Shown in pieces: positions 583 to 49,676 of a stretch of DNA of 64,000 bases. The position numbers were made by a program, and so were the translations under genes. Below the pieces are notes generated by a model. The model saw only the letters and a list, made by a program, of their open reading frames with translations, was not told the origin of the DNA and made no database searches. Where the stretch lies: IMG/VR virus record IMGVR_UViG_3300045988_082442, positions 96,001 to 160,000 of that record; one strand, written 5' to 3'. The first letter of the stretch is position 1. The number at the start of each line of letters is the position of its first letter. This DNA is from a virus.

Positions 583-619
583 AAAAATGCTTGACAGAAT
601 TTAAAACTTATAATACAAT
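583..619 (+). promoter_or_regulatory. class-1 conserved phage promoter copy
   Basis: AAAAATGCTTGACAGAATTTAAAACTTATAA then TACAAT; TTGACA at 591-596, 17-nt spacer, -10-like hexamer 614-619; same cassette recurs at least 10 times. Confidence 0.7.
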
Positions 620-1030: not shown

Positions 1031-2962
1031 ATGATAATATTAGAATATGGAAGTGCAGAGATGCAACAGTTGGAACTTAATAGTATGTTTATCTCATTTC
1101 CAAAGGGAAGCCCTACATTTAATGAAGATAGATTAAAGATAAGTGGCTACTGGAATAGAGTGTATAATGCACAGACACATGAATGGGAAGTTCCATATAA
1201 CGATAAAACATTTAAAGATATTACTGATATGTATGGTATGGATAATATATATTTTAGAAATCCAGACCAAAAGCCAAGTAGACCTAGCATTGAGAAATTG
1301 AATAAGTATTTTGATAACTTTGATTGGGGTACTTACAAGCCATTTCCTTATCAGTTAGAGGGTATTGGTTATGGCTTAACTAAAAAGAACTGGATACTTG
1401 GTGATACTATGGGTTTAGGAAAATCTTTTCAGACAATACAGTTAGCAAGGGTACATAAAAAGAGAAGAGGAATAAAACATTGTTTAGTTATATGTTGTGT
1501 AAACTCATTAAAATATAACTGGGCAAATGAAATCAGTAAGTTTACAGATGAAAGTTCAATAATATTAGGAACAAGACCAGGTAAAACAGAGAAAACAAAG
1601 AATAAATTATATAATATGACAATAGAGGAAACAAAGGAACAAATAAAGAGTTGTCCTAAGGAGTTTTTCTGGATAATAAATGTTGAAAAGATAAGAGCAA
1701 CTAAAAAGGAAGAAAAGGCAGGAGATACCATTGTAGACGCTTTTAATAAACATATAGAAGATGGGCAATTAGGTATGATAATAATAGATGAAATTCACAT
1801 GTGTAGAAACCCACAGGCTCAACAAAGTAATATGCTAATGAATTTAGGTGTAAAGATTACAAGGGAAGTTGGAAGAAATGGAAAGACTATGGAAACTAGA
1901 AGGAACATGAATGTAATTAAGGTTGGTATGTCTGGTACATTAGTTGTAAACAATCCATTGAATTTATATGTACCAATGAAAGTAGTAGGATTAGTAACAT
2001 CTAATTATTGGGTATTTTGTAAAAGATATGTTATAAAGGATATATTTGGAGGTGTTAGTGGATTTCAAAATGTAGGAGAATTACAAGACATATTACATGC
2101 TTCATTTATTAGAAGGACAAAAGAAGAGGTAGCAAAAGATTTACCACCAGTAATATTTAAGGATGAAATACTAGAAATGTCTCCAGAGGAAGAAAAAGTA
2201 TTTAATGAGCTACAGGATGGTGTAAAAGAAGAAATTACAAGTTTAGCAACAGCAGATGATAACACTTTAATACAGACAAAATCATCAGGAAGGATAAATG
2301 ATAAGATTGATATTCCAACAGCAATAACAGCAGTAATAACAAGAATAAGACAGTTTTCAACACATACTGGTTTATTAAGTTCTAAAATACAGAAATCTAC
2401 AAAGTTTGAAAGATTAAGAGATATATTAGAAGAAGCTAGAATGAATGGAGAAAAAGTATTAGTATTTTGTCAGTTTACACAGGCAATAGATATAGCAAAA
2501 GAATATTTTAAAGACTTCAACCCAAAAATTATTGTAGGAGGAATGGGAAGTGAGGTAATGAATGTTGTAGCAGAGCATGAAAATTCAGAAGGGTTTAGTG
2601 TTATATTTGCACAAACACAAACATTAGGTGTTGGACATTCTTTACCAAATACATCTCAGGTTGTATTTCTAACATTATTATGGGATTATGCAACATTTGA
2701 ACAATGCTTTAATAGATGTCATAGAATAACAAGTAAAAGAAGTGTAACAGTAACAAATTTAATTATGAAGGATACTTATGATGAAGTTATATATGATAAG
2801 ATATATGCTAAAAAAGCAATGGGAGATGTTATAATAGATGAAAAGGAAATAGATGCAGCTATGCAGTATTTATCTAAATTAGGAATTGTATTCCAGGCTG
2901 GTGAAATTAAACAAGCAAATACATTACTATTAGATGATATAAGTAATACTATACAACAATAA
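1031..2962 (+). CDS. SNF2-family helicase
   Basis: Motif I LGDTMGLGKSFQTI, DExH-like IIIDEIH, motif III MSGTLVVNNPLNLY, C-terminal helicase domain (VLVFCQF, QTLGVGHSLP, QCFNRCHRI). Confidence 0.85.
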   Translation: MIILEYGSAEMQQLELNSMFISFPKGSPTFNEDRLKISGYWNRVYNAQTHEWEVPYNDKTFKDITDMYGMDNIYFRNPDQKPSRPSIEKLNKYFDNFDWGTYKPFPYQLEGIGYGLTKKNWILGDTMGLGKSFQTIQLARVHKKRRGIKHCLVICCVNSLKYNWANEISKFTDESSIILGTRPGKTEKTKNKLYNMTIEETKEQIKSCPKEFFWIINVEKIRATKKEEKAGDTIVDAFNKHIEDGQLGMIIIDEIHMCRNPQAQQSNMLMNLGVKITREVGRNGKTMETRRNMNVIKVGMSGTLVVNNPLNLYVPMKVVGLVTSNYWVFCKRYVIKDIFGGVSGFQNVGELQDILHASFIRRTKEEVAKDLPPVIFKDEILEMSPEEEKVFNELQDGVKEEITSLATADDNTLIQTKSSGRINDKIDIPTAITAVITRIRQFSTHTGLLSSKIQKSTKFERLRDILEEARMNGEKVLVFCQFTQAIDIAKEYFKDFNPKIIVGGMGSEVMNVVAEHENSEGFSVIFAQTQTLGVGHSLPNTSQVVFLTLLWDYATFEQCFNRCHRITSKRSVTVTNLIMKDTYDEVIYDKIYAKKAMGDVIIDEKEIDAAMQYLSKLGIVFQAGEIKQANTLLLDDISNTIQQ

Positions 2963-3006: not shown

Positions 3007-3189
3007 ATGAGTGATTATTCAGAAAAAGGAATTTGTAGCATTTGTGGTAAGGAATATACAAATTGGGGAAATAATGCTTACCCAATAAATGATGGAAGAT
3101 GTTGTAATGATTGTAACACATCAAAAGTTATTCCAGCCAGATTAGGAAAATTATTAAACAAGGAGGAAAACGAAAATGAAAAAATGTAG
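3007..3189 (+). CDS. small zinc-ribbon protein
   Basis: 60 aa; CSICG...CCNDCN; RBS AAGGAGG upstream. Confidence 0.6.
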   Translation: MSDYSEKGICSICGKEYTNWGNNAYPINDGRCCNDCNTSKVIPARLGKLLNKEENENEKM

Positions 3190-3325
3190 TATTTGTGGTG
3201 AATATTTTGAAGAGTTTGGAAATAATGCTTACCCAATAAATGATGGGACATGCTGTGGTAAATGTAACGAAGAAGTAGTTATTCCAGCTAGACTAGAGAA
3301 ATTACTAAACAAGGGGGATAAATAA
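3176..3325 (+). CDS. small zinc-ribbon protein, tandem paralog of 3007..3189 (below the ORF-track size cutoff)
   Basis: Hand-translated MKKCSICGEYFEEFGNNAYPINDGTCCGKCNEEVVIPARLEKLLNKGDK; shares GNNAYPINDG.CC..CN...VIPARL..LLNK with the upstream ORF; RBS AAGGAGG 3161-3167. Confidence 0.6.
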   Translation: MKKCSICGEYFEEFGNNAYPINDGTCCGKCNEEVVIPARLEKLLNKGDK

Positions 3326-3327: not shown

Positions 3328-3570
3328 ATGTCAATGCATGTAAACATATATGGTGTACCAGATATTGATAGAGTGAATAAAGCTAAAGAAGCAAGAGATA
3401 TTATGAACAATCTAGGTATTAAGTATCCAAAAGAGCTAGATGATATAATAGAATCTGAGATAAAAATACCAATAACAAAAATAAATTCAGAATGGTCAGA
3501 TGACTATGCAGTAAGTGTGAAAGATATCCCAGATAATGTTTCAGCAATAGTATTTAGTGTTAGTTATTAA
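3328..3570 (+). CDS. hypothetical protein
   Basis: 80-aa ATG ORF, tightly packed after the previous stop. Confidence 0.5.
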   Translation: MSMHVNIYGVPDIDRVNKAKEARDIMNNLGIKYPKELDDIIESEIKIPITKINSEWSDDYAVSVKDIPDNVSAIVFSVSY

Positions 3571-3579
3571 AATGTTTAT

Positions 3580-3629
3580 AAGGATAATTTTACAATCCTT
3601 GCAGGAAACTGCAAACTGTGTAATTTGAT
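3580..3629 (+). ncRNA. CRISPR leader module L1 (two-hairpin element)
   Basis: AAGGAT-aattttaca-ATCCTT then GCAG-gaaa-CTGC then AAACTGTGTAATTTGAT, abutting the first repeat; 7 copies in the window with compensatory changes. Confidence 0.7.
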
Positions 3630-3797
3630 GTTTTATAGCTATGTAAAATGACACAGATGTGAAAGAATCCAACCCAATATAAAGTAGAACAAGGCGTTTT
3701 ATAGCTATGTAAAATGACACAGATGTGAAAGTTCTTTCTAATTTTAATGTCCTTATCATTAGTTTTATAGCTATGTAAAATGACACAGATGTGAAAG
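3630..3797 (+). CRISPR. mini-array 1: 3 repeats, 2 internal spacers of 30 nt
   Basis: Three identical copies of GTTTTATAGCTATGTAAAATGACACAGATGTGAAAG at 3630-3665, 3696-3731 and 3762-3797; spacers AATCCAACCCAATATAAAGTAGAACAAGGC and TTCTTTCTAATTTTAATGTCCTTATCATTA. Confidence 0.9.
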
Positions 3798-3929
3798 ATT
3801 ATGATATGGGAACTATAATGTGGTGTAGTAAGTATAAGGAAGGTCAAGAAGAATTATGCAACAAAGAATGCAGAAAGAGATGGTCTTATGAGTTAAATAT
3901 TTGTAGACCAGATAAGGAGGAATTAGAAA

Positions 3930-4178
3930 ATGGAAAATAGAACAAGTGGTTATGTAAATACAGTATCTAATTACGGTTGGGTTTGTCCAATATGTGGTAG
4001 CGTTTATAGTCCTACAACAGTAGAGTGCTACAAATGTAATAAAAGTATGACATCAAGCAGTACAACCATCGATTGGACTGGACCATCAAAGATTACAACA
4101 ATAAATCAGGATGAGATAGCTAGATATAATAATGATGGTACAAAGCATAAGAGAAGTTTAATAAAAGGGGGAAACTAG
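3930..4178 (+). CDS. small zinc-ribbon protein
   Basis: CPICG...CYKC; RBS AAGGAGG upstream. Confidence 0.55.
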   Translation: MENRTSGYVNTVSNYGWVCPICGSVYSPTTVECYKCNKSMTSSSTTIDWTGPSKITTINQDEIARYNNDGTKHKRSLIKGGN

Positions 4179-6092: not shown

Positions 6093-6120
6093 AGAGAAAA
6101 AAAATTATATAATTTTTAAG

Positions 6121-6157
6121 AAAAATGCTTGACAGAATTTAAAACTTATAGTAGACT
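6121..6157 (+). promoter_or_regulatory. class-1 conserved phage promoter copy
   Basis: AAAAATGCTTGACAGAATTTAAAACTTATAG then TAGACT. Confidence 0.7.
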
Positions 6158-6192
6158 AAGTATAGTTAAAAATAATTTAGGAGGTTATTATA

Positions 6193-9019: not shown

Positions 9020-9041
9020 TGATAGGTTTATAAAAATACAT

Positions 9042-9078
9042 AAAAATGCTTGACAGAATTTAAAACTTATAATAAAAT
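9042..9078 (+). promoter_or_regulatory. class-1 conserved phage promoter copy
   Basis: AAAAATGCTTGACAGAATTTAAAACTTATAA then TAAAAT. Confidence 0.7.
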
Positions 9079-9118
9079 ACATAAAGTAAAAAGAAATAAG
9101 AGGTTAGGAGGATTTATA

Positions 9119-12100
9119 ATGGATATTGGAAACGGAAAACCATTACATGAGATTATGGCATCTATATTAGGTGGAAACAAAGAAGATAATATTATTGGAA
9201 AACAAAATACAACAATGAAAGTAGATAAAGAAGTAAAGAAACCAGAAGAGGAAAAAGTAGATACAGCTGATATAATAAAATCAGCACCTACAAGACCAGA
9301 CCCAAATAAAGAAGAACAAGATGTTGATGGAGTAGCAGACGGAATATTAGTAGTAACAGACCCAGAGATAACAAGCGAGGAGTTTGAAGAAGTAGCAGAT
9401 GAATTACAAGGAATAGTAGATAATTCAGAAGCAGGAGAATTACCATATACAGATAAATATAAAGGTGACTATATATTATCTTGTCCGATATGTGGTGGAA
9501 CATTTGTAAGTGAGACATTATTAGATAGTGGAGAGGATACTTGCCCAATATGTTGTAAAATACCAGACGCATTTGTAGTAAGTGGCAGAATAGAGGGAGA
9601 AGAATCAGCAGATAGCCATGAAGATATACAAGATGATATAGACAATGAAGAAAATTTAGAAGAACCAGCAGAGGGGGAAGAAGAGCTACAAGAAGTAGAA
9701 CCAGAAATGGAAGAACCAGTAGAGGAAGAAGAACCAAATAAAAAAGAGAGTGTAAATATGGAAGGTAACAAATTAGAGGAAACAAAGAAACTACAAGAAG
9801 ATGAATATGATGATTATATAGAAAATGAGAAAGCATTAGCAAAAGAGTATAGCGAAAGAGTAAAAGGAAATATAACACAAGAAGCAAGAACAGCTTTCTA
9901 TGATTTAAAGGATATATTAGATACTGAAAGCAATGATACATCTGTAGATGGTTTCTATTTCCCATCAAAGGCAGTTGCAGTAATTGAAAATTCAAAAGCA
10001 CAATATCATCTAAATGGAAATATGGACTTAACAGTTGCAAATATATTAAATATGGTTGATGATAATGATTCAATAGAAGAAGCTATTGATGAATTATTTA
10101 CAGACTATAAAGCTGATAGTGCATTTAGTTGGGCAGACAATTTTATATCAATATTAGGTAAATTAAGTTTTGATTTAATTGAAGATGAAGATTGGGAAAT
10201 TTATGATTGGAATTATAAAGAAGATAGTGATGGGGATATAATTGAAGGTGCAGGTAAAATTGGTAATCAAGAATTTGTATTTGAAGCATCAAGAGAAGAT
10301 AATATGATAGATTTCTACGATTTTGAATCAGGAGAAACACTAGATATAACTGATGATGAATTATGCAACTATATTCTAGACCTACTTAATGGACTAGAAG
10401 AAAGTAAAAAGGTTGAAGGAGATTTATCAAAAGACCTTTATGGTGCTGAAGCAGATAAAAGAACATATAATAGATTACAAAACCTAGATATATACCTAGA
10501 AGAATATGAACAAGCTGTTGCAGATAAAGATGAAAGTAGAATTGAAACAGCAAAATCAAAAATAATGGGAAATATAGGATACTTAATTCCAGCATTAAAT
10601 ATAAAAGGTGGTGCTAAAGGACTAGTAGAATATATAAAGAACACAGAATTTGATTTTGAAAATAAATTTAAGGAAACAATTAATACTTTAAATCAATTTG
10701 CAGAAGAGTACAGAAAAGAATACGAAGAAAGTAAAAAAGTAACAGAAGATGCAGACGATTATGATGAAGAAAGTCAACAAATGTTTGATAAAGATACAGA
10801 TTTAATTAATGGATATTGCCAACAACTTCATAAACTATGCAAGGAAGCAGTTAATAACTTAAATACAAGTAACGATATACCAAGAATGAGTAAGGCATTT
10901 ATTGAAATTATACAAATGTATGCAGCTCAATTAGGTATGCCATTTAAAGCAACACTAGATATGTCAAATGGAACTGTTGTATTGGGTGAAAGTAAAAAAG
11001 TTGAAGGGAAGAAACTAACAGAAGAATATTATGAAGATGGTATCTATGCAGAAATAGAAGATGCATTAAGAGATGCTGGTTTTGATATTCAAAGATATTC
11101 TGATGCTGGTGTACTTACAAGAAACTTAGGCTGGATAGTTTATAATGAAAATGGAGAAAGAGCTGACTTATCTTGTGATGGAACCTACTTAGATGAGAAT
11201 AAAAAACTAACAGAAGGTGCAGATACAAGAGAAGCAACAGAAATATTTATAAATGGTTTAGACAAAGCAGTAAATACACAATCAATAGTAAATGCAGAAT
11301 GTATGGACGAGTTTTTCCAAAATGCAAAAGGAATATTGATGGAAGTTGCAGAAAACTATGATGACTATAAAGATACTCAAAGAGCAAGTTCATTAACAGA
11401 AAGTAAAGACCCAACATATATAGTATGTTCATACTATGATGAAAAACTACATGGACTAGAAGATGAATTAAAAACAGATGACTGGTCAGAAGTAGAAGAT
11501 TTTGCACATAGAAAACTAATGCAAGGAAATATGTTAGAAATAGAAAATACCAAAACAGGTAAGTATAGAAGAATAAACCCAGATGAATATGATGAAACAT
11601 TTGATGGGGAATTTATAGTAAGACCAGAAGAATTAGATGAAGCTAAAAAAGTAGAAGAGCTTATAAACAATATGTATGATTTCAATAAGGTAGAAGAAAG
11701 TAAAGAAAAGAAAGAAGAAGCAAGAGTACACAGAGTATTAAATAAAGGTGATAGATTTCAAAATAAAAATGGTGTAATAGCAACAATAATAGATGTTGAT
11801 AACGAACATTTATTAGACGGTCAACCACAAGTAACATATAAGTTTAATGATGGGGCAGCAAAATGTTACCCAATGAATAGTGTTAATGATATGCTAAATG
11901 ATTGTGGATATACTAAAATGGAAGAAAGTGAAAAAAGAACAGTAAAGACAGAATCAAGAGATAGAGTAGCAGAAAAACTACCTAGATTTATATATAATTT
12001 AACAAGTGATGCTGATGTAAAAGCATTTGGGGAATCAGCTTGGAGTGCAAATGAACCAACATCAAATGGTTTAGGAATAGTAGTATATGAAGTATATAGA

Positions 12101-13306
12101 AATGGTAAATCTACATTTACATCAAAAGATATAGCAGATGCTGTAATAAAAGAGTTTCCAGAATTAAGAGTATATGGTTGGGTATATAATGATAAAGGTG
12201 TAGTATTTACAAAGAAAGATACTAAAAAAGATGAACCAGAAAAAGTTGAAGAAAAGAAACCATTAGAAAAAGGACCATCTGGTGTGTTTGAAGATGCAGA
12301 TGCAAAATCATTTATAAGAGATATAGCAAACGCAGTAGGAAAGGCAAAAGAAGAAGCAAAAGGAGCTTCAATAGAAATGCCAACAACATGGGAACTAATG
12401 AACAATAATAGTATTATAGTATATGAGTTACCAATTAAATTTACAGGTGATGTAATAGGTTTAGGAGAAGAAATAGCAAAACAATTATATAATATAATTG
12501 GAAGTGCAAAAGTAACAGAAGTAAAATGTGTTCCAGAATCAACTAAAAAAGGAACAGTACTAACATTATCAGTAATAGGACCAGATATAGTAGCACAAAG
12601 TAAAGGTAAGAAAGAAGAAAAAGAAGAAGTAAATCAAGAAAAAGAAGTAAATCAAGAAAAAGAAGTAGAATCAAAGAAATTGACTGAATCAGAAGTTGTA
12701 TGGGATTCAGAACCAACTTATGTAGATAGTATAGATGACCCAGACTTTGTAGAGTGGTTTGAAAATAACAACTATGACGAATACTTAGAAGGAGAAGACG
12801 AAGAAACACAATTAAAAATAAAACAAGATTATCTTGAATCATATAACGAAGATATGAACTCAGCAGTAATGGATGACTGGCAAGAAACTATAATTCCTAA
12901 AATAGAGAATCAATTAGATACAGACGATTTAATAATTTTACAAGGTATAGCACAAACATGGAGGGGACAAGGGGAAGCTTGTAAGATTTTAAGAGGTATG
13001 GATGAATTTGAGAACTTAGTTGCAGATTATGATAATGTTAGACTTGAAGCAAACGATGAAAATGATTTAACTATTGATTTAGTACATCATGATGGAACAC
13101 ATTCTATGGCATTATATACATTTAATGATGATGTAGAAGGTGTTTACAATAAACTTATAGAATTAAATATAGATGGATTTAGTAATGATGAGTATGAAGA
13201 TTTTGATGATGCTTATTCATACTATGATGCAGCTGATTTCTTAGATTGTTTAGCAGACGGACATCAAGAAGAGATGAGAAAATTCTTAATACCAATTAAA
13301 TGGTAA
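9119..13306 (+). CDS. giant acidic multi-module protein, function unknown
   Basis: Likely start ATG 9119 (MDIGNGK) after AGGAGG; the track start at 9050 lies inside the promoter. About 1395 aa, very D/E rich, Cys4 knuckle CPICGG...CPICC, recurring ESKKVEG-like linker motif. Confidence 0.7.
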   Translation: MDIGNGKPLHEIMASILGGNKEDNIIGKQNTTMKVDKEVKKPEEEKVDTADIIKSAPTRPDPNKEEQDVDGVADGILVVTDPEITSEEFEEVADELQGIVDNSEAGELPYTDKYKGDYILSCPICGGTFVSETLLDSGEDTCPICCKIPDAFVVSGRIEGEESADSHEDIQDDIDNEENLEEPAEGEEELQEVEPEMEEPVEEEEPNKKESVNMEGNKLEETKKLQEDEYDDYIENEKALAKEYSERVKGNITQEARTAFYDLKDILDTESNDTSVDGFYFPSKAVAVIENSKAQYHLNGNMDLTVANILNMVDDNDSIEEAIDELFTDYKADSAFSWADNFISILGKLSFDLIEDEDWEIYDWNYKEDSDGDIIEGAGKIGNQEFVFEASREDNMIDFYDFESGETLDITDDELCNYILDLLNGLEESKKVEGDLSKDLYGAEADKRTYNRLQNLDIYLEEYEQAVADKDESRIETAKSKIMGNIGYLIPALNIKGGAKGLVEYIKNTEFDFENKFKETINTLNQFAEEYRKEYEESKKVTEDADDYDEESQQMFDKDTDLINGYCQQLHKLCKEAVNNLNTSNDIPRMSKAFIEIIQMYAAQLGMPFKATLDMSNGTVVLGESKKVEGKKLTEEYYEDGIYAEIEDALRDAGFDIQRYSDAGVLTRNLGWIVYNENGERADLSCDGTYLDENKKLTEGADTREATEIFINGLDKAVNTQSIVNAECMDEFFQNAKGILMEVAENYDDYKDTQRASSLTESKDPTYIVCSYYDEKLHGLEDELKTDDWSEVEDFAHRKLMQGNMLEIENTKTGKYRRINPDEYDETFDGEFIVRPEELDEAKKVEELINNMYDFNKVEESKEKKEEARVHRVLNKGDRFQNKNGVIATIIDVDNEHLLDGQPQVTYKFNDGAAKCYPMNSVNDMLNDCGYTKMEESEKRTVKTESRDRVAEKLPRFIYNLTSDADVKAFGESAWSANEPTSNGLGIVVYEVYRNGKSTFTSKDIADAVIKEFPELRVYGWVYNDKGVVFTKKDTKKDEPEKVEEKKPLEKGPSGVFEDADAKSFIRDIANAVGKAKEEAKGASIEMPTTWELMNNNSIIVYELPIKFTGDVIGLGEEIAKQLYNIIGSAKVTEVKCVPESTKKGTVLTLSVIGPDIVAQSKGKKEEKEEVNQEKEVNQEKEVESKKLTESEVVWDSEPTYVDSIDDPDFVEWFENNNYDEYLEGEDEETQLKIKQDYLESYNEDMNSAVMDDWQETIIPKIENQLDTDDLIILQGIAQTWRGQGEACKILRGMDEFENLVADYDNVRLEANDENDLTIDLVHHDGTHSMALYTFNDDVEGVYNKLIELNIDGFSNDEYEDFDDAYSYYDAADFLDCLADGHQEEMRKFLIPIKW

Positions 13307-13822: not shown

Positions 13823-13868
13823 AGAGGAATTAGTATAAATAAATATATTGAGAAGAGGTAGGTATTAT

Positions 13869-16800
13869 ATGAATGAACAATTAGACTTAATGACATCTTT
13901 ATCAATGGAAGAGTTAGAAGCAGTAAAAGAGATACTAAATGAAATATCAACAACAGGAAGTTCAGAAATGTATGATGCAATAAATTTAGCAGACTATGAA
14001 GAAATACCTGTTGACCTATGGACTTTTCTATCAAGAGATGATTTATTAGGAAAATATACAAATGGTGGTAAGGATATATATCAAACTTGGGTTAATGAGT
14101 TAAAATATGTTCATAACCCAGCAAACTTTGTAGACCAATGGGCTATTACAGGAAGTACAGGAACTGGTAAATCAACAGTTGCTACATATTCATTATGTTA
14201 TGAATTATATAAGCTTATGTGTTTAAAGAATCCAAATAGATTTTACTTAGGGGCAAATGAAACTATATGGTTTTTATTCTTTAACCTTAATTTAAAATTA
14301 GCAGAGAAGACTATGTGGGGAAAATTCCAGAAAGCATTACAAATGTCTCCTTGGTTCCTAGAAAGAGGAACAGTATCTGGAAAAACAAACTTAGTATATC
14401 AACCAAATAAAGATATAAAACTAGATATAGGTTCTACTGAGGAGCATGCTTTATCAGTAGCAGTACAATTCGCAGCAATGGATGAGATGTCTTTTGGAAG
14501 CAATGATAATGTTGAATATTTACAAACAGGAATGATGGCAATATATAATCAGTTATATCTTCGTTTATCTTCTCGTTTCTTATCAGCAGGAAGAATACAA
14601 GGTAGAATGTATCTTATATCTTCAGCTAAATCTACAAATGCTGTTTTAGAATCATTTATAAAAGATAATGAGGGACAACCAGGAATGCATGTAAGTAGAT
14701 ACAAACAGTGGGAGGTATTACCAGCATCAAAGTTTAGTGGTAAGTGGTTTAAATTAGCAGTTGGAAATGAATTATTAGAAAGTTATATAATGGGTGTAGA
14801 TGTTAGTGATGAAGATGTTAAAAATGTAGAAATGCAAGGATACCAAGTAATAGATGTACCATTAGAAATGATGAGAAGATTTGAGATGGACTTAAATAGA
14901 ACACTGATAGATACCTGTGGTATAGCAGTACAATCATCATATAAGTTTATTCCATATAGAATAATAGAACCATGTTTAGGAGATGGAATAAATCCATTTA
15001 AACAAGAGATTATAAAAACAGGTATGAAAGATAATATGCAGATAAAAGATTTCTTTGAACCAGAAATAGTACCAGAAATATTATATTCTAAAAAGTTATA
15101 TATACACTGTGACTTATCAAAATCAGGAGATATGACAGGAATAAGTTGTGTAGCAGTACTAGGATATAAGAACCAAGAAAGATATGATGCAGAAGGGAAT
15201 TTGAGTACACTAAAAGAAATGGTATTTAGGCATGTATTTAGTATAGGTCTACAATGTCCAGCAAATGATGAGTTAAGTATGATAAAAGTAAAAGACTTTA
15301 TACATTATCTAAAATATGATTTAGGGTGGAACATAGCAGGAGTAAGTTGTGATGGTTATCAGTCTTTAATGCTATTACAATCATTGAGATTAGATGGATT
15401 TACAACAAGTGAAGTATCTATGGATATTTTAAAGAATAAAGAATGTGTAGGTTATACATCTTTTAGAAATGCTTTACTAGAAAAAAGAATATATTTATTA
15501 AAGCTACATGAACTAATAAGAGAAATAACTAATCTGGAAAAGAATGAAACAACAGGTAAAATAGACCACCCACGCCAATGTCTTACTGGGGATACAAAAG
15601 TAAGAATGCTAGATGGCACTTCAAAAACAATGACAGATTTATTATTGGATTATCAAAATAATATTCCAAATTATGTATATAGTTTTAATGAGACAACACA
15701 TAAAATTGAACCAAATCTTATAAAGAAAGTTTGGCAGACAAGGTATGAAAAGTGTATATATGAAATAACATTAGATAATGATGAAATAATAAGATGCACC
15801 GAAAATCACCCATTTATGTTAAGAGATGGTCAATATATTGAAGCAAAAAATTTAAAGACTGATGATGCTTTAATGCCTTTATATACAAAATTAGCTGGAA
15901 AAGGTGGATTAAAAGATTACAGAATATATTATGAACCTATGGAGGGGAGATGGCATTTTGAACATACAAGATTTGACCCAATAAGGAAATTAAAAAGAAT
16001 CAAGGGTAATGTTACTCATCATGCAAACTATAATAAGTTGGACAATAGACCTATAAATCTAAAATATATTACAAAGGCAAAACACAGATGGATACACAAT
16101 AGACATCCAGGTAAGTATGAGAATTTGAAGAGAAGCAAGACTATTACAGAGTGGCATGCTCAAAATAAAAATAGTGTAGAGTATAAAGCAAGAAATGAAA
16201 AGTGCAGAATTGGTGTAATAAATTATTATGTAAACAATCCAGCTATCATGAATAAAAAAGTTAGTTCATTTAAAAATACAATTTCTAAACTCTCTACAGA
16301 AGAGCTTAGTAAAAAATTTGGAAAGAATAAAGGAAGACATTGGTACACTAACGGAGTTAATAATATGTTGCTATACCCAACAGATTTGGTTCCTGATGGT
16401 TATTTTAAGGGTAAGACACAAGATGGTAAATGGTACACTAATGGTGCTAAGACAATACTTGTAAAGGCAGCTGATGATATACCAGATGGATTTTATGCAG
16501 GAAGAACACTTGAATATAAAAATCACAAAGTAAAGAGCATAAGGGTTAGATATGGCTATGAAAAGGTATATGATTTAGAGGTGGAAAACAATCCCAATTT
16601 TGCTTTAGATGCTGGTGTTTTTGTGCATAATAGCACAACTATCAATAAAGAAACAGGAGAAAAGGTAAAATCAGTAGGTAAGGATATTAGTGATAGTTTA
16701 GGTGGAGCTGTATATAATGCAATATTATCAGTAAACCTAGATGAACTAGATTATTTAGACCAAAAGATATTGACTAACGATGGACAAGGAAATACTTATA

Positions 16801-17030
16801 TAAGAAGTCTATCAACAGAAAATGCAATAAATAAGAAATTTGGATTTACAGTAGATAGAATGGGTGTAGTACATCTTCAAGATACAGAAAAGAAAGAAAC
16901 AGATAAGCAAGAAGATATAAATGCAATAATAAGTGATGAAATGGAAAAATTAAAAGAACATAAGTCAACAGTAGAAACTGTAGACCCTAATAAATATTGG
17001 GGTAATAAAAGTGGAATGATTATAATATAG
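13869..17030 (+). CDS. terL: terminase large subunit, interrupted in frame by an intein
   Basis: Walker A GSTGTGKST, Walker B-like AAMDEMSF, nuclease-domain motifs HCDLSKSGD, SCDGYQS, GKDISDSLGGAVYNA; likely start ATG 13869 after AGAGGTAGG. Confidence 0.85.
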   Translation: MNEQLDLMTSLSMEELEAVKEILNEISTTGSSEMYDAINLADYEEIPVDLWTFLSRDDLLGKYTNGGKDIYQTWVNELKYVHNPANFVDQWAITGSTGTGKSTVATYSLCYELYKLMCLKNPNRFYLGANETIWFLFFNLNLKLAEKTMWGKFQKALQMSPWFLERGTVSGKTNLVYQPNKDIKLDIGSTEEHALSVAVQFAAMDEMSFGSNDNVEYLQTGMMAIYNQLYLRLSSRFLSAGRIQGRMYLISSAKSTNAVLESFIKDNEGQPGMHVSRYKQWEVLPASKFSGKWFKLAVGNELLESYIMGVDVSDEDVKNVEMQGYQVIDVPLEMMRRFEMDLNRTLIDTCGIAVQSSYKFIPYRIIEPCLGDGINPFKQEIIKTGMKDNMQIKDFFEPEIVPEILYSKKLYIHCDLSKSGDMTGISCVAVLGYKNQERYDAEGNLSTLKEMVFRHVFSIGLQCPANDELSMIKVKDFIHYLKYDLGWNIAGVSCDGYQSLMLLQSLRLDGFTTSEVSMDILKNKECVGYTSFRNALLEKRIYLLKLHELIREITNLEKNETTGKIDHPRQCLTGDTKVRMLDGTSKTMTDLLLDYQNNIPNYVYSFNETTHKIEPNLIKKVWQTRYEKCIYEITLDNDEIIRCTENHPFMLRDGQYIEAKNLKTDDALMPLYTKLAGKGGLKDYRIYYEPMEGRWHFEHTRFDPIRKLKRIKGNVTHHANYNKLDNRPINLKYITKAKHRWIHNRHPGKYENLKRSKTITEWHAQNKNSVEYKARNEKCRIGVINYYVNNPAIMNKKVSSFKNTISKLSTEELSKKFGKNKGRHWYTNGVNNMLLYPTDLVPDGYFKGKTQDGKWYTNGAKTILVKAADDIPDGFYAGRTLEYKNHKVKSIRVRYGYEKVYDLEVENNPNFALDAGVFVHNSTTINKETGEKVKSVGKDISDSLGGAVYNAILSVNLDELDYLDQKILTNDGQGNTYIRSLSTENAINKKFGFTVDRMGVVHLQDTEKKETDKQEDINAIISDEMEKLKEHKSTVETVDPNKYWGNKSGMIII
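15579..16631 (+). mobile_element. intein with HNH-type homing endonuclease insert (351 codons)
   Basis: HPRQ|CLTGDTKVRMLDG (block A, Cys1), ...YDLEVENNPNFALDAGVFVHN|S (block G, His-Asn plus Ser+1); internal THHANYNKLDNRPINLKYITKAKHRWIHN and two WYTNG repeats. Confidence 0.85.
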
Positions 17031-23220: not shown

Positions 23221-23285
23221 TAACATATTCTAATATAAAGTAGTATATAATATAAATATACTACTTTATTTTTTACTCCACTTGA

Positions 23286-23322
23286 AAAAATGCTTGACAA
23301 AATTTAAAACTTATGGTAAGCT
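23286..23322 (+). promoter_or_regulatory. class-1 conserved phage promoter copy
   Basis: AAAAATGCTTGACAAAATTTAAAACTTATGG then TAAGCT; preceded by the terminator-like hairpin AAAGTAGTATAT...ATATACTACTTT plus a T-run. Confidence 0.65.
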
Positions 23323-23357
23323 AGGAGAAGATAGAGATAGTATTGGGGGTTTTAATT

Positions 23358-23657: not shown

Positions 23658-23672
23658 TTTAGAAAATTTATA

Positions 23673-23709
23673 AAAAATGCTTGACAAAATTTAAAACTTA
23701 TAATAACAT
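23673..23709 (+). promoter_or_regulatory. class-1 conserved phage promoter copy
   Basis: AAAAATGCTTGACAAAATTTAAAACTTATAA then TAACAT. Confidence 0.7.
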
Positions 23710-23740
23710 GTCAGCAGATAATTTATTGGAGGGATTTAAA

Positions 23741-28890: not shown

Positions 28891-28941
28891 AGTGCAATTT
28901 TATATTTTAAAGTGCAAAAATTGCACTTTAAAAATTTATTC

Positions 28942-28978
28942 AAAAATGCTTGACATAATTTAAAACTTATAATATACT
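28942..28978 (+). promoter_or_regulatory. class-1 conserved phage promoter copy driving CRISPR array 2
   Basis: AAAAATGCTTGACATAATTTAAAACTTATAA then TATACT; no ORF between it and the leader/array. Confidence 0.7.
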
Positions 28979-29008
28979 TATATAAGTTAAAGAATTTATA
29001 ATAAATAT

Positions 29009-29058
29009 AGAGGTAATTTTACAACCTCTGCAGAAAACTGCGAACTGTGTATTTTGAT
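29009..29058 (+). ncRNA. CRISPR leader module L2
   Basis: AGAGGT-aattttaca-ACCTCT, GCAG-aaaa-CTGC, GAACTGTGTATTTTGAT. Confidence 0.7.
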
Positions 29059-29160
29059 GTTTTATAGCTATATAGAATGGCACAGGTGTAAAAGTATACC
29101 ATTTTGGGCTTTCCAAATCTTCCTGTTTTATAGCTATATAGAATGGCACAGGTGTAAAAG
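29059..29160 (+). CRISPR. mini-array 2: 2 repeats, 1 internal 30-nt spacer (plus a degenerate repeat remnant near 29191-29220)
   Basis: GTTTTATAGCTATATAGAATGGCACAGGTGTAAAAG at 29059-29094 and 29125-29160; spacer TATACCATTTTGGGCTTTCCAAATCTTCCT; downstream ...ACATAGAATGGAATAG resembles the repeat core. Confidence 0.85.
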
Positions 29161-29215: not shown

Positions 29216-29773
29216 ATGAGTGATTTTAAATTTATATTGTATTTAGATATGGATGGTGTAACAGCATCATCAAGTTATATAATAAAGATACATAATTACA
29301 TAATAAATAAGGAAGATGAAAATAAAGACTGGGAATATAGAAACTTTATGCAAAATTGGTGTTTTCAGAAGGAAGCAGTAGAATGCTTAAATTCTATATA
29401 TGATATAATACCATATAAAATAGTTCTATCAACTACAAGAAGATTTGAACTGGATATAAATGGATGGAACACAGTATTTAAGATAAATAAGATTAAAGCA
29501 AAAATAATAGGAAGAACATCTAAATGTGCATTTGATAAGAATAAATATACTTGGAGAGAAGATGAGATATATAAATATCATTATATAGACCATGACCTAA
29601 AGGACGTACCATTGATAATAATAGATGACGATAGCTTTGATTTACAGAAGTTTGAAGATAAACTAATAAAGGTAGATGGTACAGAAGGACTAACAATGAA
29701 ATACTATAAAGAAATATTAGATAAATTATATAAACAAGGTATTATGTATAAGGGGGATAGTAATGAGTATTGA
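29216..29773 (+). CDS. HAD-superfamily hydrolase-like protein
   Basis: Motif I LDMDGV, motif II LSTTRR, acidic IIIDDD. Confidence 0.5.
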   Translation: MSDFKFILYLDMDGVTASSSYIIKIHNYIINKEDENKDWEYRNFMQNWCFQKEAVECLNSIYDIIPYKIVLSTTRRFELDINGWNTVFKINKIKAKIIGRTSKCAFDKNKYTWREDEIYKYHYIDHDLKDVPLIIIDDDSFDLQKFEDKLIKVDGTEGLTMKYYKEILDKLYKQGIMYKGDSNEY

Positions 29774-30041: not shown

Positions 30042-30048
30042 TAAATAT

Positions 30049-30099
30049 AAGGGTAGTTTTACAATCCTTGCAAGAAATTGTGAACTGTGATATTTTGAT
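30049..30099 (+). ncRNA. CRISPR leader module L3
   Basis: AAGGGT-agttttaca-ATCCTT, GCAA-gaaa-TTGT, GAACTGTGATATTTTGAT. Confidence 0.7.
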
Positions 30100-30325
30100 G
30101 TTTTATAGCTATATAAAATGACACAGATGTGAAAGACACAATTGTTTAAATCTTTTAAAATTTGATGTTTTAGAGCTGTATAAAATAACACAGGTGTGAA
30201 AGGAACGATGTAACTTCTAACAATGAAAAGAGGTTTTAGAGCTGTATAAAATAACACAGGTGTGAAAGGCATTAGTTACTGTGTGTTTTGTTTTAGAGCT
30301 GTATAAAATAACACAAGCGTGAAAG
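30100..30325 (+). CRISPR. mini-array 3: 4 repeats of two subtypes; spacers 31, 30 and 21 nt (degenerate terminal repeat near 30353-30388)
   Basis: R1 GTTTTATAGCTATATAAAATGACACAGATGTGAAAG (30100); R2-R3 GTTTTAGAGCTGTATAAAATAACACAGGTGTGAAAG (30167, 30233); R4 differs only in its tail, ...ACACAAGCGTGAAAG (30290). Confidence 0.85.
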
Positions 30326-30390
30326 TATTTTGAAGATAGTGATGATGTTTTTTGTTTTATAAATATACAAAATATAATAAAATAATTTAA

Positions 30391-30427
30391 TAAAATACTT
30401 GACAAAATTTAAAACTTATTATAGAAT
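30391..30427 (+). promoter_or_regulatory. class-1 conserved phage promoter copy
   Basis: TAAAATACTTGACAAAATTTAAAACTTATTA then TAGAAT. Confidence 0.65.
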
Positions 30428-30455
30428 AGATACAGTTAAAAGAAGGAGGTGCTTT

Positions 30456-32003: not shown

Positions 32004-32073
32004 AAATGTTCAGTAAGATGTTAATAAGAATGTAAGTAAGTTTTCTGGTATCTTGATAAAAACCAGAATATAT

Positions 32074-32266: not shown

Positions 32267-32272
32267 TAATAT

Positions 32273-32864: not shown

Positions 32865-32868
32865 GTAA

Positions 32869-32918
32869 AAGGGCAATTTTACAGCCCTTGCAGGAAACTG
32901 TGAACTGTGTATTCTGAT
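32869..32918 (+). ncRNA. CRISPR leader module L4
   Basis: AAGGGC-aattttaca-GCCCTT, GCAG-gaaa-CTGT, GAACTGTGTATTCTGAT; begins 5 nt after the tRNA-Tyr CCA. Confidence 0.7.
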
Positions 32919-32919
32919 A

Positions 32920-33144
32920 TTTTTATAGCTATATGAAATAATACAGGTGTAAAAGTGTTCTAACTGTTTTAGAGTATAATCGTTTGTTTTACAGATATAT
33001 GAAATAACACAGGTGTAAAAGCTAGACTGTAAATCTGGTCTCATTTGAGTTACTTTGTAGTTATATGAAATAGCACAGATGTAAAATTGGATAATATGTT
33101 CTGAATTGTTTTATAGCTATACAGAAATGACATGGATGTAAGAG
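32920..33144 (+). CRISPR. mini-array 4: 4 diverged repeats; spacers 30, 30 and 20 nt; directly upstream of the effector gene
   Basis: R1 TTTTTATAGCTATATGAAATAATACAGGTGTAAAAG (32920), R2 GTTTTACAGATATATGAAATAACACAGGTGTAAAAG (32986), R3 ACTTTGTAGTTATATGAAATAGCACAGATGTAAAAT (33052), R4 GTTTTATAGCTATACAGAAATGACATGGATGTAAGAG (33108). Confidence 0.8.
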
Positions 33145-33201: not shown

Positions 33202-35007
33202 ATGAAAAGAAAAGAGTTAAACGAAGGAGTTCACTGTGTAGAATATGCTTTAATGCACATACCAGATGAATATAAGGAATTGTTAGAAAGACAATATAAT
33301 TATATGGAAGATTTCAAGAATGGCTTTATTAGTTATATGTGGAGATATATTTCAAAGCAACGAAAGGAAAACGAAGAATTTGATAAAGCCATGGCTGAAG
33401 TTAGATACTTAAATACAAAGGAAGGAAGAATTATAAAGAAGGATGAACGCTCTAATAGACTAAGTAAAGCATATACAACAATAGGTAATTTTGTAAAAGA
33501 AACAAAGTTATTAGATTCTGGAAGTAGACGAAAAGAATACTACAGTACAGTAAAAAATGTTTATTATGCTTGGATACCAGATGATAGTAGGTCTTATGCA
33601 ATAGATGATGTTTTATCAGCATTTGAAGTATTCTTCTTTGATAGGGGTAAAGCAGTATTCCAAAAGAAATATGGTCATACAAAAATATTACAATTTAAAC
33701 CAGCATACAGTAGAATGAAGAGTACTGGTGAAATCAATACAATAGTACAAACACCTAGCAGAGTTGTATTTGAAAATGGAAATCCTTATTTTGAAATGTG
33801 GGATTTAAGAGATTTAAAAGATATACCAGAAGAAGAATGTCAAAAAGGTAAAAGACATAGTAAGATAAGATTTAGAATGTATTGTAATGATAAAGATGAG
33901 TTACAAAGTTATATAAAAACAAACCCATACATAGGTGGAACTAAGTTATTAAGATACTGGAAGAAGGGAAAATGGAGATATAGAGTTCAATTAAACTTTG
34001 AAGCAATATCACCAGCAGTAAAACAAATGAGCAACGAAGAGCATATAATGGGAATAGACTTAGGTACAGAAACAATAGCTTGGGTAAGAGATGATGGAGA
34101 ACAAGCAATATGGGAGTTATCACCAGATACACCAAGGGTAACAGAAGAAATAAAGGAAATAGATGTATATTTAGATAATTCAAGAAGGGCTATGAATCCA
34201 GAATTATTTAGGGAAGATGGTACTAGAATAAGTAATAGGGAAGCTAGGGAATTAGGATTAGAAGAAAAGCATTCAAAAAGATATATAAAAGCAGCAGCAA
34301 GAAGAAAAGAATGTTTTAGATATTTAGGAGAAAAAAGAAAACTAAATAACAGAATCCTAGCTAAAAAGTTATTTGAATTAGGTAATGAGTTTCATATAGA
34401 AAATAATAAGGTTTCATCTTGGATGTTAAAAAGATGTCACATGGCTCTTAAAACAGCAATGAAATATGCTTCTGGAGCAAGAGCAAGTGATTATGGGAAA
34501 GTTGTAGCAGATAGAGCCCCAGGAATGATAGATGCAAGATTATCTCAATTAGCAGGACAAAAAGGACTTTCATACCATAAAATTGAGAAGATAGAAGGTT
34601 TTAAATGCACAGAATATAATCATTTTACGGATAAGAATGATTTATTCCAATATCTAAATGACAGAATTGTAGTATTAGATGTTGACAGTGTAAATGATGT
34701 CTATAAAGAGTTTATTACTGATTTTGGTGATACAATTACTGATTTAAAAATAGACGGAAAAGACATAATACTACAAAGAGATTTATATGCAGCAGCAAAA
34801 TTAGTTTATTGCACACCATATAAAGAAACTATTGTGAATAGTAAAGGTAGAAAGGTAGAAGTAACAAGATATAAATTTGATAGAGAAGGGTTTAGCAAAT
34901 TCTTTGTTGAGAAATTTTATCCAAAACATTTAGAGTATATAATGAATCTAAGGGCTGAGTTAGCTAATGGTAAGAAGCTAAGTGGTACTGTATTTGGTAA
35001 TATTTAA
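33202..35007 (+). CDS. compact TnpB/Cas12-like RuvC nuclease (putative type V-like single effector, 601 aa)
   Basis: RuvC-I HIMGIDLGTETIAW (D286), RuvC-II GNEFHIENNKVSSWM (E400), RuvC-III DIILQRDLYAAAKL (D527); TnpB-like order of basic helices between motifs; no CxxC zinc finger in the lid/Nuc region; flanked by array 4 and a solo leader. Confidence 0.75.
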   Translation: MKRKELNEGVHCVEYALMHIPDEYKELLERQYNYMEDFKNGFISYMWRYISKQRKENEEFDKAMAEVRYLNTKEGRIIKKDERSNRLSKAYTTIGNFVKETKLLDSGSRRKEYYSTVKNVYYAWIPDDSRSYAIDDVLSAFEVFFFDRGKAVFQKKYGHTKILQFKPAYSRMKSTGEINTIVQTPSRVVFENGNPYFEMWDLRDLKDIPEEECQKGKRHSKIRFRMYCNDKDELQSYIKTNPYIGGTKLLRYWKKGKWRYRVQLNFEAISPAVKQMSNEEHIMGIDLGTETIAWVRDDGEQAIWELSPDTPRVTEEIKEIDVYLDNSRRAMNPELFREDGTRISNREARELGLEEKHSKRYIKAAARRKECFRYLGEKRKLNNRILAKKLFELGNEFHIENNKVSSWMLKRCHMALKTAMKYASGARASDYGKVVADRAPGMIDARLSQLAGQKGLSYHKIEKIEGFKCTEYNHFTDKNDLFQYLNDRIVVLDVDSVNDVYKEFITDFGDTITDLKIDGKDIILQRDLYAAAKLVYCTPYKETIVNSKGRKVEVTRYKFDREGFSKFFVEKFYPKHLEYIMNLRAELANGKKLSGTVFGNI

Positions 35008-35017
35008 TATAAATTAT

Positions 35018-35089
35018 AGGGTAATTTTACAGCCCTTGCAGGAAACTGCAAATAAAATATCATTTTAAAGCTCTATGATATTGTAAAAG
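35018..35089 (+). ncRNA. solo leader module L5 plus truncated degenerate repeat
   Basis: AGGGT-aattttaca-GCCCT, GCAG-gaaa-CTGC, then ATTTTAAAGCTCTATGATATTGTAAAAG (35062-35089), which resembles the repeat ends. Confidence 0.6.
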
Positions 35090-45269: not shown

Positions 45270-45276
45270 TAGATAT

Positions 45277-45309
45277 AAGGGTAATTTTATAACCCTTGCA
45301 GGAAACTGC
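45277..45309 (+). ncRNA. solo leader module L6 (no intact repeat follows)
   Basis: AAGGGT-aattttata-ACCCTT, GCAG-gaaa-CTGC; then GAACTATTTTTAATAGATATAAAAGC, only a faint repeat remnant. Confidence 0.6.
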
Positions 45310-45390
45310 GAACTATTTTTAATAGATATAAAAGCTTTTTTCGATACCCCAATTTATAAGATAAATAAAACAGAATAGAGGTAGGAAGTT

Positions 45391-49186: not shown

Positions 49187-49193
49187 TAAATAT

Positions 49194-49243
49194 AAGGATA
49201 ATTTTACAATCCTTACAGGAAACTGTGAACTGTGTAATTTAAT
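49194..49243 (+). ncRNA. CRISPR leader module L7
   Basis: AAGGAT-aattttaca-ATCCTT, ACAG-gaaa-CTGT (compensatory relative to GCAG/CTGC), GAACTGTGTAATTTAAT. Confidence 0.7.
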
Positions 49244-49673
49244 ATCCTATAGCTATATAAAATGACACAGATGTGAAAGTATTGCAACATTAAAATACCC
49301 TATTTTTGGGGTTTTATGGCTATATAAAATAACACAGATGTGAAAGAGGGATTTTGTTTTGTTAGCATTTATTTCTGTTTTATAGCTATATAAAATGACA
49401 CAGATGTGAAAGTCTGGAACAAATCTTGAAAAGTCCAGCTTTGTTTTATGGCTATATAAAATAACACAGGTGTGAAATAATTCAAAGTATTGTTCAAATA
49501 GTTTCTGTGTTTTATAGTTATATAAAATGACACAGATGTGAAAGGAATACTAAAATAAAGTAGCAATTGAGCTAGTTCTATAGCTATATAAAATGACACA
49601 GATATGAAAGTTAAGCTCATGAATGATAGCAACAATAGTTTTATAGATATATAAGAAGCAGAAAGGAGAAAAT
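49244..49673 (+). CRISPR. mini-array 5: 6 good repeats plus a degenerate terminal repeat; spacers 31, 30, 30, 30, 30 and 27 nt
   Basis: Repeats at 49244, 49311, 49377, 49443, 49509, 49575 (for example GTTTTATAGCTATATAAAATGACACAGATGTGAAAG at 49377); terminal GTTTTATAGATATATAAGAAGCAGAAAGGAGAAAAT at 49638. Confidence 0.9.
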
Positions 49674-49676
49674 TAA

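Follow-up and report, generated by a model that had tools for sequence, protein, structure and literature searches.

Does a short array of repeats behind a small phage gene form a working CRISPR cassette, and if so, which nuclease would it serve? The question is raised by array 1, three 36-nt repeats in a 64,000-nt stretch of viral DNA (positions 96,001 to 160,000 of IMG/VR record IMGVR_UViG_3300045988_082442; below, the window, whose numbering is used unless a locus is named). A metagenomic contig of 213,644 bp, from a gut phage, contains the window exactly. From sequence comparison, in which the loci retrieved carry L numbers, we put at roughly 70% the probability that array 1 works as a CRISPR cassette within a compact type V system encoded by the phage, Cas12/TnpB-derived and TranC-like. 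The candidate effector is a 601-aa protein encoded in the same window.

Cassette anatomy and the structured leader

A first description made from the letters alone (the sequence-only reading) had listed identical repeats at 3630, 3696 and 3762, two spacers of 30 nt each, and a leader that starts 10 nt past the stop codon of the open reading frame (ORF) 3328..3570. Re-reading returned three identical 36-nt copies and two mutually unrelated 30-nt spacers, with the TAA at 3568-3570 and the first conserved hairpin from 3580, so that these statements stand. The description had also stressed that the array ends without a further repeat. Nothing repeat-like lies 3' of 3797, and the point is one of framing only: with three repeats, two spacers and an undegraded last repeat, array 1 is an ordinary array. 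Its regular, near-identical direct repeats and unique spacers of similar length are those of CRISPR arrays in general.

Chance is not a plausible source of these repeats, because the same family recurs at least 18 times in the window, in five arrays (first repeats near 3630, 29059, 30100, 32920 and 49244), all on the + strand. A covariance model of the leader and first repeat recovered 7 full-length modules in the window and 23 in related loci, against 0 in 47 unrelated loci. The seven cassettes of the window, five arrays and two single-repeat modules, are spread over 46 kb (Table 1). Three cassettes stand directly behind transfer RNA (tRNA) genes: array 4 of the window, one in L001 at 9327 and one in L004 at 4627. 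The repeat is absent from the reverse strand of the window, and there is no anti-repeat besides those of the cassettes. Comparison with Rfam returned only tRNAs at the gathering threshold, and leader and repeat had no meaningful match at E values up to 10. The leader pattern CCTTGCAGGARAYTGYRAA proved too degenerate for searching, since all 240 loci from scans of metagenome and genome contigs were chance matches, none with a full leader; a strict leader pattern gave a single chance match in IMG/VR.

Every array is preceded by ~52 conserved nt comprising two hairpins and a stretch that complements the repeat's middle part. Hairpin 1 is AAGGAT-AATTTTACA-ATCCTT, with an invariant TTTTA loop, and hairpin 2 is GCAG-GAAA-CTGC. 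Over 19 units both are 100% paired, with two-sided changes in 8 of 10 pairs. The 11-nt anti-repeat, CTGTGTAATTT at 3616-3626, complements repeat positions 17-27. This helix is 93% paired over the 19 units, versus 34-45% after a shift of the 3' partner by 1-3 columns, and it includes a compensatory switch from G-C to A-U. The anti-repeat CTGTGTAATTT of the window faces the repeat segment AAATGACACAG; in L004, L006 and L248, TATGTAATTT faces AAATTACATA; and in the L001 array at 5030, TATGTAAAAT faces ATTTTACATA. A second L001 array retains a CTGTGT-type anti-repeat that matches its own repeats, so the covariation holds even within one genome.

These features argue that the leader is a structured element resembling a trans-activating CRISPR RNA (tracrRNA) with a 3' anti-repeat, which the sequence-only reading had missed. 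The anti-repeat lies on the array strand and is complementary to the 3' part of the repeat, as in tracr-dependent type V and TranC systems. As encoded, the leader does not have the form of a separate, trans-acting tracrRNA of ~100-200 nt: the element measures ~52 nt, is contiguous with repeat 1 and occurs once per array.

The hairpin-1 loop TTTTA (3588-3592) is also complementary to the repeat tail T(A/G)AAA (3792-3796), at equivalent positions in all modules. Loop and tail are both invariant in the 19 aligned units; one L249 module has the compensatory combination of TTTCA with TGAAA. A loop:tail pseudoknot beside the guide, as in the guide RNAs of TnpB and Cas12f, is plausible.

The sequence-only reading saw no separate promoter for array 1 and proposed read-through from the upstream operon. 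Array 1 indeed lacks a consensus promoter of its own, and it lies inside an operon, because a strong promoter stands at 591-619 and no comparable promoter and no + strand terminator-like site was found between it and 6048. Read-through transcription from upstream is a reasonable, if unproven, consequence of this layout.

Table 1. Coordinates of the cassettes, the effector candidate and associated features in the window
Feature	Position	Strand	Remarks
Copies of the promoter consensus	579-622, 6117-6160, 9038-9081, 23282-23325, 23669-23712, 28938-28981, 30387-30430, 35258-35301, 39614-39657, 43377-43420, 53288-53331
Sigma-70-type phage consensus promoter, TTGACA-17-TACAAT	591..619	+	Nearest strong promoter 5' of array 1
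Upstream 80-aa ORF, function not assigned	3328..3570	+	No match in PHROG search
Array-1 leader, structured, putatively tracr-like	3578..3629	+	Hairpin 1 3580-3600, hairpin 2 3601-3612, anti-repeat 3616-3626
Repeat 1, GTTTTATAGCTATGTAAAATGACACAGATGTGAAAG, 36 nt	3630..3665	+	Positions 17-27 (AAAATGACACAG region) pair with leader anti-repeat
Spacer 1, AATCCAACCCAATATAAAGTAGAACAAGGC, 30 nt	3666..3695	+
Repeat 2, GTTTTATAGCTATGTAAAATGACACAGATGTGAAAG	3696..3731	+
Spacer 2, TTCTTTCTAATTTTAATGTCCTTATCATTA, 30 nt	3732..3761	+
Repeat 3, GTTTTATAGCTATGTAAAATGACACAGATGTGAAAG	3762..3797	+	Last repeat, not degraded
Post-array 30-mer, truncated-gene remnant	3798..3827	+	Potential guide of a repeat-3 CRISPR RNA (crRNA); strain comparison with L262
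Array 2, leader and 2 repeats	29007..29160	+	Own consensus promoter 28950-28978, directly 5' of leader
Array 3, leader and 4 repeats	30047..30325	+	Leader fragments inside two 'spacers'
Array 4, leader and 4 repeats degrading toward 3' end	32867..33144	+	Leader right behind tRNA-Tyr; just 5' of effector gene
601-aa Cas12/TnpB-like effector candidate	33202..35007	+	RuvC residues D286, E400, D527; begins 58 nt past array 4
Single-guide module: leader hairpins, compact anti-repeat/repeat stem, GTAAAAG tail	35014..35089	+	52.5 bits, model positions 1-88
Second single-guide module: leader and mini-repeat ending ATATAAAAG	45274..45334	+	59 bits, model positions 1-88; 5' of Pnkp/RNA-ligase gene
Array 5, leader and 6 repeats plus degenerate seventh	49192..49674	+	Seventh overlaps ribosome-binding site of next gene

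The effector candidate and its relatives

The 601-aa protein gave weak profile matches to a TnpB-type transposase PHROG and to PADLOC Cas12f (partial, E 4e-7) and Cas12u3, and a sub-threshold match only to the NCBIfam family 'RNA-guided endonuclease TnpB'; no Pfam family matched, Cas12f1-like_TNB included. Among 5.8 billion proteins its homologues make up only eight clusters at 90% identity, none listed with a name, and a look-up of three homologue clusters gave 'hypothetical protein' only. With an exhaustive profile search the ~600-aa family grew to about two dozen 50%-identity clusters, beyond which E-values fall to about 1e-32 and the matches are ~500-aa proteins, sub-threshold TnpB, C2c8 and IS607 TnpB. 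A second, word-indexed homologue search with the effector profile yielded no additional proteins.

An AlphaFold model from 49 sequences reached a predicted local distance difference test score (pLDDT) of 89 and a predicted template modelling score (pTM) of 0.84, and was used instead of an earlier model from 8 sequences that was poor in the RuvC half (pLDDT 66). Its 40 significant matches in the PDB (Foldseek) are Cas12m, Cas12f, Cas12p, Cas12o, TranC, TnpB, Fanzor, Cas-lambda, Cas12k or Cas12i, with Cas12m2 at the top. Searches of PDB sequences with the single protein and with a profile detected no similarity to any solved structure. The RuvC D/E/D triad is intact in the window protein, and the CxxC zinc finger is absent. 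Judged by its distant relatives and the model, the protein is TnpB-derived and of Cas12 fold; as in type V systems, a TnpB-like split-RuvC effector is encoded beside an array.

The effector homologue loci that were fetched (L001, L004, L006, L248, L249 and L277) are all phage-like contigs with the same leader/repeat modules. A module lies 8-9 nt past the effector stop in L001, L006, L277 and the window, and about 10 nt past it in L249; in the window an intrinsic terminator hairpin (35090-35111) and a T-run follow the module. In L004 and L248, whose effector is split, a leader and its array are found no more than about 70 nt downstream of the effector. L277, whose effector belongs to the 90%-identity cluster of the window protein, is the same strain as L258 (both contig LIJU20-1 scaffold_67). 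The last short 'spacer' ahead of the effector gene, TGGATAATATGTTCTGAATT (33088-33107), is kept at L001:9888-9908, although the two effectors share only 49% identity; instead of a true spacer, this may be a trailer or regulatory element.

Compact tracr-type V and TranC systems (Cas12f, Cas12n and the TranC clades) combine a small TnpB-derived RuvC effector with short arrays of 32-38-nt repeats; the TranC-type anti-repeat lies between effector gene and array, on the same strand, and base-pairs to the repeat's 3' half, with the guide located 3' of the repeat (bioRxiv 10.64898/2026.03.27.714800). The phage system shares the small RuvC effector, the short arrays, the same-strand anti-repeat and the 3' guide. 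It differs as follows: its effector has no sequence similarity to solved Cas12, TnpB or TranC proteins and no zinc finger; its tracr-like part measures only ~52 nt, as against 100-200 nt; and this part is fused to the first repeat and duplicated ahead of five arrays as well as in two single-guide modules.

With TnpB and its omega RNA, or right-element RNA (reRNA), the likeness extends to fold (TM-score 0.66 on target for ISDra2 TnpB), and distant relatives of the effector score as RNA-guided TnpB. The phage scaffold begins at the 3' end of the nuclease gene, and the single-repeat modules consist of scaffold and flank, like an omega RNA. Unlike TnpB, the effector has a ~250-aa N-terminal expansion and is accompanied by true arrays with exchangeable spacers, whereas no transposase or transposon ends were seen.

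Other families were considered and set aside. The available part of the report on Cas12p ('Cas12 hacker') describes a phage-encoded, tracrRNA-dependent protein of 500-700 aa, near TnpB and thought to target rival nucleic acids, with 12 described members of which 11 are >70% identical to each other; that part does not describe dispersed arrays with leader-fused anti-repeats (bioRxiv 10.1101/2025.01.20.633832). Cas12p also depends on TrxA and has a GTN PAM. The window effector is likewise phage-encoded and matches Cas12p in structure (9jfs_A, E 4e-9), but Cas12m2 and Cas12f match it as well or better, and neither phmmer nor a profile matched chains 9jfs/9jg3 at E up to 10, so that the fold alone is similar. 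Cas12f (V-F) was rejected on the partial PADLOC match, the missing Cas12f1-like_TNB and CxxC and the empty PDB sequence search; Cas12m (V-M), whose RuvC is inactivated and which binds without cleaving, on the retained D/E/D triad; and Cas-delta on its size of 867-936 aa.

The analogy with Cas12a drawn in the sequence-only reading does not hold up. A handle 5' of the guide and an array that can be read through and cut into units are common to both, and Cas12a is a weak structural match to the effector model. Cas12a-like proteins, however, are self-processing, ~1,200-1,300 aa long and independent of a tracrRNA, with a repeat hairpin near the 3' end as handle. None of this applies here: the effector has 601 aa, is encoded by the phage 29 kb away from array 1 and comes with an anti-repeat leader.

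Virus-borne mini-arrays (archaeal SPV1/SPV2; prophages) serve in conflicts between viruses and carry one or a few spacers against related viruses (PMC11656645). Their repeats are copied from the host, and they use host Cas proteins. The arrays described here are viral and of few spacers too, one of which agrees at 29/30 positions with another large phage's tRNA-Tyr gene, but this phage brings its own effector and tracr-like leader. Distinctive of the system are the short anti-repeat element fused to the first repeat, the seven dispersed cassettes, the coexistence of single-guide and array forms and the exchange of spacers by recombination. Neither the repeat nor the leader nor the protein turned up in the literature that could be searched, which did not cover the original TranC paper and a 2022 survey of virus-encoded CRISPR systems; an earlier description is possible, and the phage-encoded RNA-guided system is probably undescribed.

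Guide polarity, spacer turnover and targets

The single-repeat modules at 35014-35089 and at 45274-45334 give full-length alignments with the leader and repeat model and finish in the repeat tail (G/A)TAAAAG; L249 has three more such modules and no array. Because the leader directly adjoins the repeat on its 5' side in these modules, a guide is possible only 3' of the repeat. The resulting order of hairpins, anti-repeat, repeat and guide is that of Cas12 and TnpB and the reverse of Cas9. The polarity assumed in the sequence-only reading, repeat handle followed by guide, is thus supported by the single-repeat modules and by the Cas12/TnpB-fold effector.

Solitary phage-borne repeat units are also a known anti-CRISPR strategy (PMC11656645), and the single-repeat modules of the window could be seen as RNA decoys, mimics of a repeat that soak up host Cas proteins. 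The structured leader that co-varies with the repeat, the unique and strain-variable spacers and the phage-encoded cognate effector make this extremely improbable for these units.

With the guide 3' of the repeat, an RNA of repeat 3 plus flank is expected from array 1. The flanking 30-mer lies, at 28/30 positions, inside an intact 101-aa ORF of strain L262, where a different sequence, CAGTTGAC, stands 5' of its counterpart. The window has a 44-codon remnant ORF at 3806-3941, and in L258 and L266 the 3' junction of array 1 is 18 nt shorter, the first 18 nt of the 30-mer being absent. The 30-mer is thus a remnant of the truncated 101-aa gene, and it may well be loaded as a guide.

The same junction has been weighed for selfish homing in the style of TnpB in place of immunity. 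The last repeat and its flank guide would cut the 'empty' or variant allele in a co-infecting relative, repair would spread the cassette, and the internal spacers would be secondary. Neither an empty site immediately beside a module nor a target-adjacent or protospacer-adjacent motif (TAM/PAM) was seen, the 'guide' of the 35014 module is merely a terminator hairpin, and the arrays include a spacer that matches a foreign phage. Homing therefore appears unlikely, even with a TnpB-derived effector, single-repeat modules that yield only flank-derived guides (two in the window, three in L249), the 28/30 match of the array-1 flank to the L262 ORF with CAGTTGAC 5' of it, array-1 junctions that vary between strains, and a genome rich in homing endonucleases and equipped with an intein.

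A broader proposal is tentative, and we regard it as doubtful: the phage lineage would be a living intermediate between TnpB omega RNA and CRISPR array, with a single-guide form that uses a flank guide and an array form that reiterates the 3' third of the scaffold. Its cassettes would spread or compete by RNA-guided cleavage of rival alleles in co-infection (homing or marker exclusion), and the array-1 30-mer would be a real guide against the L262-type allele.

Spacers of array 1 differ among strains with the same flanking genes and near-identical effectors, in four sets at this one locus. Relative to the set of the window (AATCCAACCCAATATAAAGTAGAACAAGGC and TTCTTTCTAATTTTAATGTCCTTATCATTA), L258/L270 have spacer 1 with one single nucleotide polymorphism (SNP) and a different second spacer; L259/L268 have spacer 1 with one SNP and, in place of repeat 2 with its spacer, a unit that is homologous to a portion of array 5 of the window; and L261/L271 have two other spacers. 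The spacer-2 position holds a different sequence in each of these three strain types. Because of the four sets, array 1 displays the variation of spacers between close relatives, around constant repeats and flanks, that is seen in CRISPR arrays generally. The replacement in L259/L268 is best read as recombination between arrays. In L277, the spacers of arrays 2 and 4 are all different from those of the window, there is no array 3, and a leader fragment stands as one 'spacer'; for array 5, the comparison retrieved only the same strain. Cas1, Cas2 and Cas4 were not among the top 25 PADLOC and Pfam families listed per search for 69 ORFs of the 64-kb window, which makes recombination the most economical reading of spacer turnover; Cas1-Cas2 are probably not involved.

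A comparison of the spacers with phage databases, which the sequence-only reading had proposed as a check, was carried out with blastn against GenBank phages (INPHARED), and none of the 17 spacers and flanks matched. Exact 25-mers from the spacers of arrays 1, 2, 3 and 5 had no match in IMG/VR either; only a tRNA-Tyr-like spacer did. This array-4 spacer (33022-33051) matches, at 29/30 positions, the tRNA-Tyr gene of L275 (802-831; 175 kb) and L276 (2571-2600; 83 kb), both low-GC large phage contigs of IMG/VR. The window's own tRNA-Tyr gene (32779-32864, directly 5' of array 4) has 4 mismatches to the spacer. Two of these four differences are adjacent, GA/CC in the window versus GG/TC, and look compensatory in the tRNA stem. 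The match fits the targeting of other phages. The only two protospacer flanks (5' ..ACACTC and ..AAACCG; 3' CTT.. and CTC..) did not yield a PAM.

Several observations weigh against a working type V cassette. Neither array-1 spacer has a target in GenBank phages, IMG/VR or the related loci. Each array has a single leader, which leaves repeats 2 and 3 dependent on pairing in trans or on a leader-free function. An alternative hairpin within the repeat, between its 5' and 3' ends, is 77% paired, which is weaker than the anti-repeat helix; it may matter for the processing of internal repeats. About half of the effector family has N/D at the first two RuvC positions (window residues 286 and 400). 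A frameshift splits the effector in L004 and L248, whose arrays are apparently intact. Finally, the second array-1 spacer of L258/L270 perfectly matches an SNF2 helicase gene (protospacer at window 1128-1157). L270 itself carries this protospacer, its helicase gene being 2.6 kb upstream in the same operon (matching sites L270:7216-7245 and L270:9821-9850). With an active nuclease, such a self-match would be suicidal unless the PAM is missing or the DNA is bound without cutting; a site without PAM, a regulatory role and a recombination by-product are all possible.

On the split effectors, the ORFs are overlapping or adjacent (L004:10001-11831, L248:1217-2984), and the frameshift occurs in independent assemblies; L004 has eight regular arrays within 21 kb, near its split effector. 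Regular arrays beside a frameshifted effector are one argument that the mini-arrays hijack a host CRISPR-Cas effector, a type II-A-like one being the candidate (36-nt repeat, 30-nt spacer, GTTTTAGAGCT start), and that the 601-aa protein is uninvolved. The absence of adaptation genes from the families listed for the window ORFs is another, and we also counted the 36/30 architecture and the repeat variant GTTTTAGAGCTGTAT..., which we take to resemble type II-A repeats. We nevertheless judge a host effector improbable. Every array has a same-strand anti-repeat 5' of the repeat, in the single-guide order of Cas12 and the reverse of Cas9, and the window lacks reverse-strand repeats or another anti-repeat. 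The single-repeat modules leave no room for a guide 5' of the repeat, and the modules always co-occur with the phage Cas12-like gene, one of them directly behind its stop codon.

In the N/D half of the effector family, N replaces D at RuvC-I and D replaces E at RuvC-II; L249, with single-guide modules only, belongs to this group. The group may be a subclade without nuclease activity, and some of its members may work like Cas12m. Together with Cas12m2 as top structural match, arrays embedded in operons and the L258/L270 spacer, whose crRNA in L270 would be antisense to the helicase mRNA of the same operon, these substitutions would suit guides that regulate the phage's own genes, either by binding DNA or mRNA without cleavage, as Cas12m and Cas12k do, or like the repeat-like regulatory RNAs of some cas loci. 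Such regulation is very unlikely: the effector of the window keeps the D/E/D triad, the imperfect tRNA-Tyr case is the only match of a window spacer within the window, and spacers vary from strain to strain, an unexpected pattern for regulatory guides.

Returning to the type V cassette, its anatomy, the covariation, the link between effector and modules, the strain differences and one near-perfect match to a foreign phage are seen directly in the sequence; transcription, RNA processing, effector loading and cleavage are what we infer. Array 1 would be transcribed within the operon from the promoter at 591-619, and its ~52-nt leader would fold into two hairpins. The 11-nt anti-repeat would pair in cis with positions 17-27 of repeat 1, giving a natural single-guide RNA, and after processing it would probably pair with repeats 2 and 3 in trans. 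This leader-repeat scaffold would be bound by the 601-aa RuvC nuclease that the phage encodes. Mature guide RNAs would have a 5' repeat-derived handle and a 3' spacer and would direct the nuclease to complementary DNA, mainly of competing related phages, while spacer content would shift through recombination between arrays and between phages.

If this is correct, the phage encodes an undescribed lineage of 601-aa Cas12-like proteins with a fused and unusually short guide scaffold of ~88 nt, attractive as a small genome editor. The occurrence of unsplit single-guide cassettes and true arrays in one family would bear on the origin of type V arrays from TnpB omega RNAs, and the 'RNA splitting' hypothesis would become testable in a natural system. 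A jumbo phage would then spread guide cassettes through its operons, also behind tRNA genes, and exchange spacers without Cas1-Cas2. Since at least one guide would be directed against a conserved tRNA gene in rival jumbo phages, this would amount to RNA-guided warfare between phages in gut and rumen viromes.

Phage genome and neighbouring genes

Contigs near-identical to the 213,644-bp contig exist at 210-216 kb, and there is also a 161-kb contig labelled bovine metagenome. The window has a GC content of 29%, its convincing genes are all on the + strand, and its endolysin is closest to those of phages that infect Bacillota. Matches in PHROG and Pfam include a virion structural protein, the endolysin, a holin, homing endonucleases and a set of RNA-repair genes. 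No relative at the DNA level was found among GenBank phages (INPHARED), either by megablast of 25 kb of the window or by blastn of the array region.

A protein identical to the 80-aa ORF ahead of array 1 occurs on 11 contigs, most of which break within the array. Just 5' of this ORF, a 137-nt tandem duplication (3034-3170 and 3185-3321, 77% identity) corresponds to two small paralogous ORFs. The promoter consensus AAAAATGCTTGACAnAATTTAAAACTTATAAT, of ~44 nt, has 11 copies in the window (Table 1), each 5' of a gene block, and these probably define one temporal class of phage transcription units.

Five tRNA genes are clustered within 32073-32864, among them one tRNA-like gene with an odd anticodon loop (32357-32446). 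The RNA-repair set (regions 45391-47859, 29216-29773, 49677-50111 and others) comprises a Pnkp-type kinase-phosphatase-ligase, Thg1, RlaP, HAD_SAK_2 and YqeY, and with the tRNA cluster it suggests that the phage defends itself against tRNA-cleaving systems of the host. Tyr-tRNA or RNA-repair genes of this kind have several guide cassettes as neighbours.

The genome is rich in selfish nucleases. A 1,060-aa protein (13848-17030), with a weak partial match to a large-terminase PHROG, contains an intein with an HNH or homing-endonuclease insert, and further homing endonucleases are encoded at 18987-20540 and elsewhere. A large ORF without family matches (9050-13306) varies from 948 to 1,395 aa across otherwise near-identical strains (counterparts L269:15190-19377, L268:15173-18019 and L270:15191-18064), and may encode a receptor-binding or tail protein.

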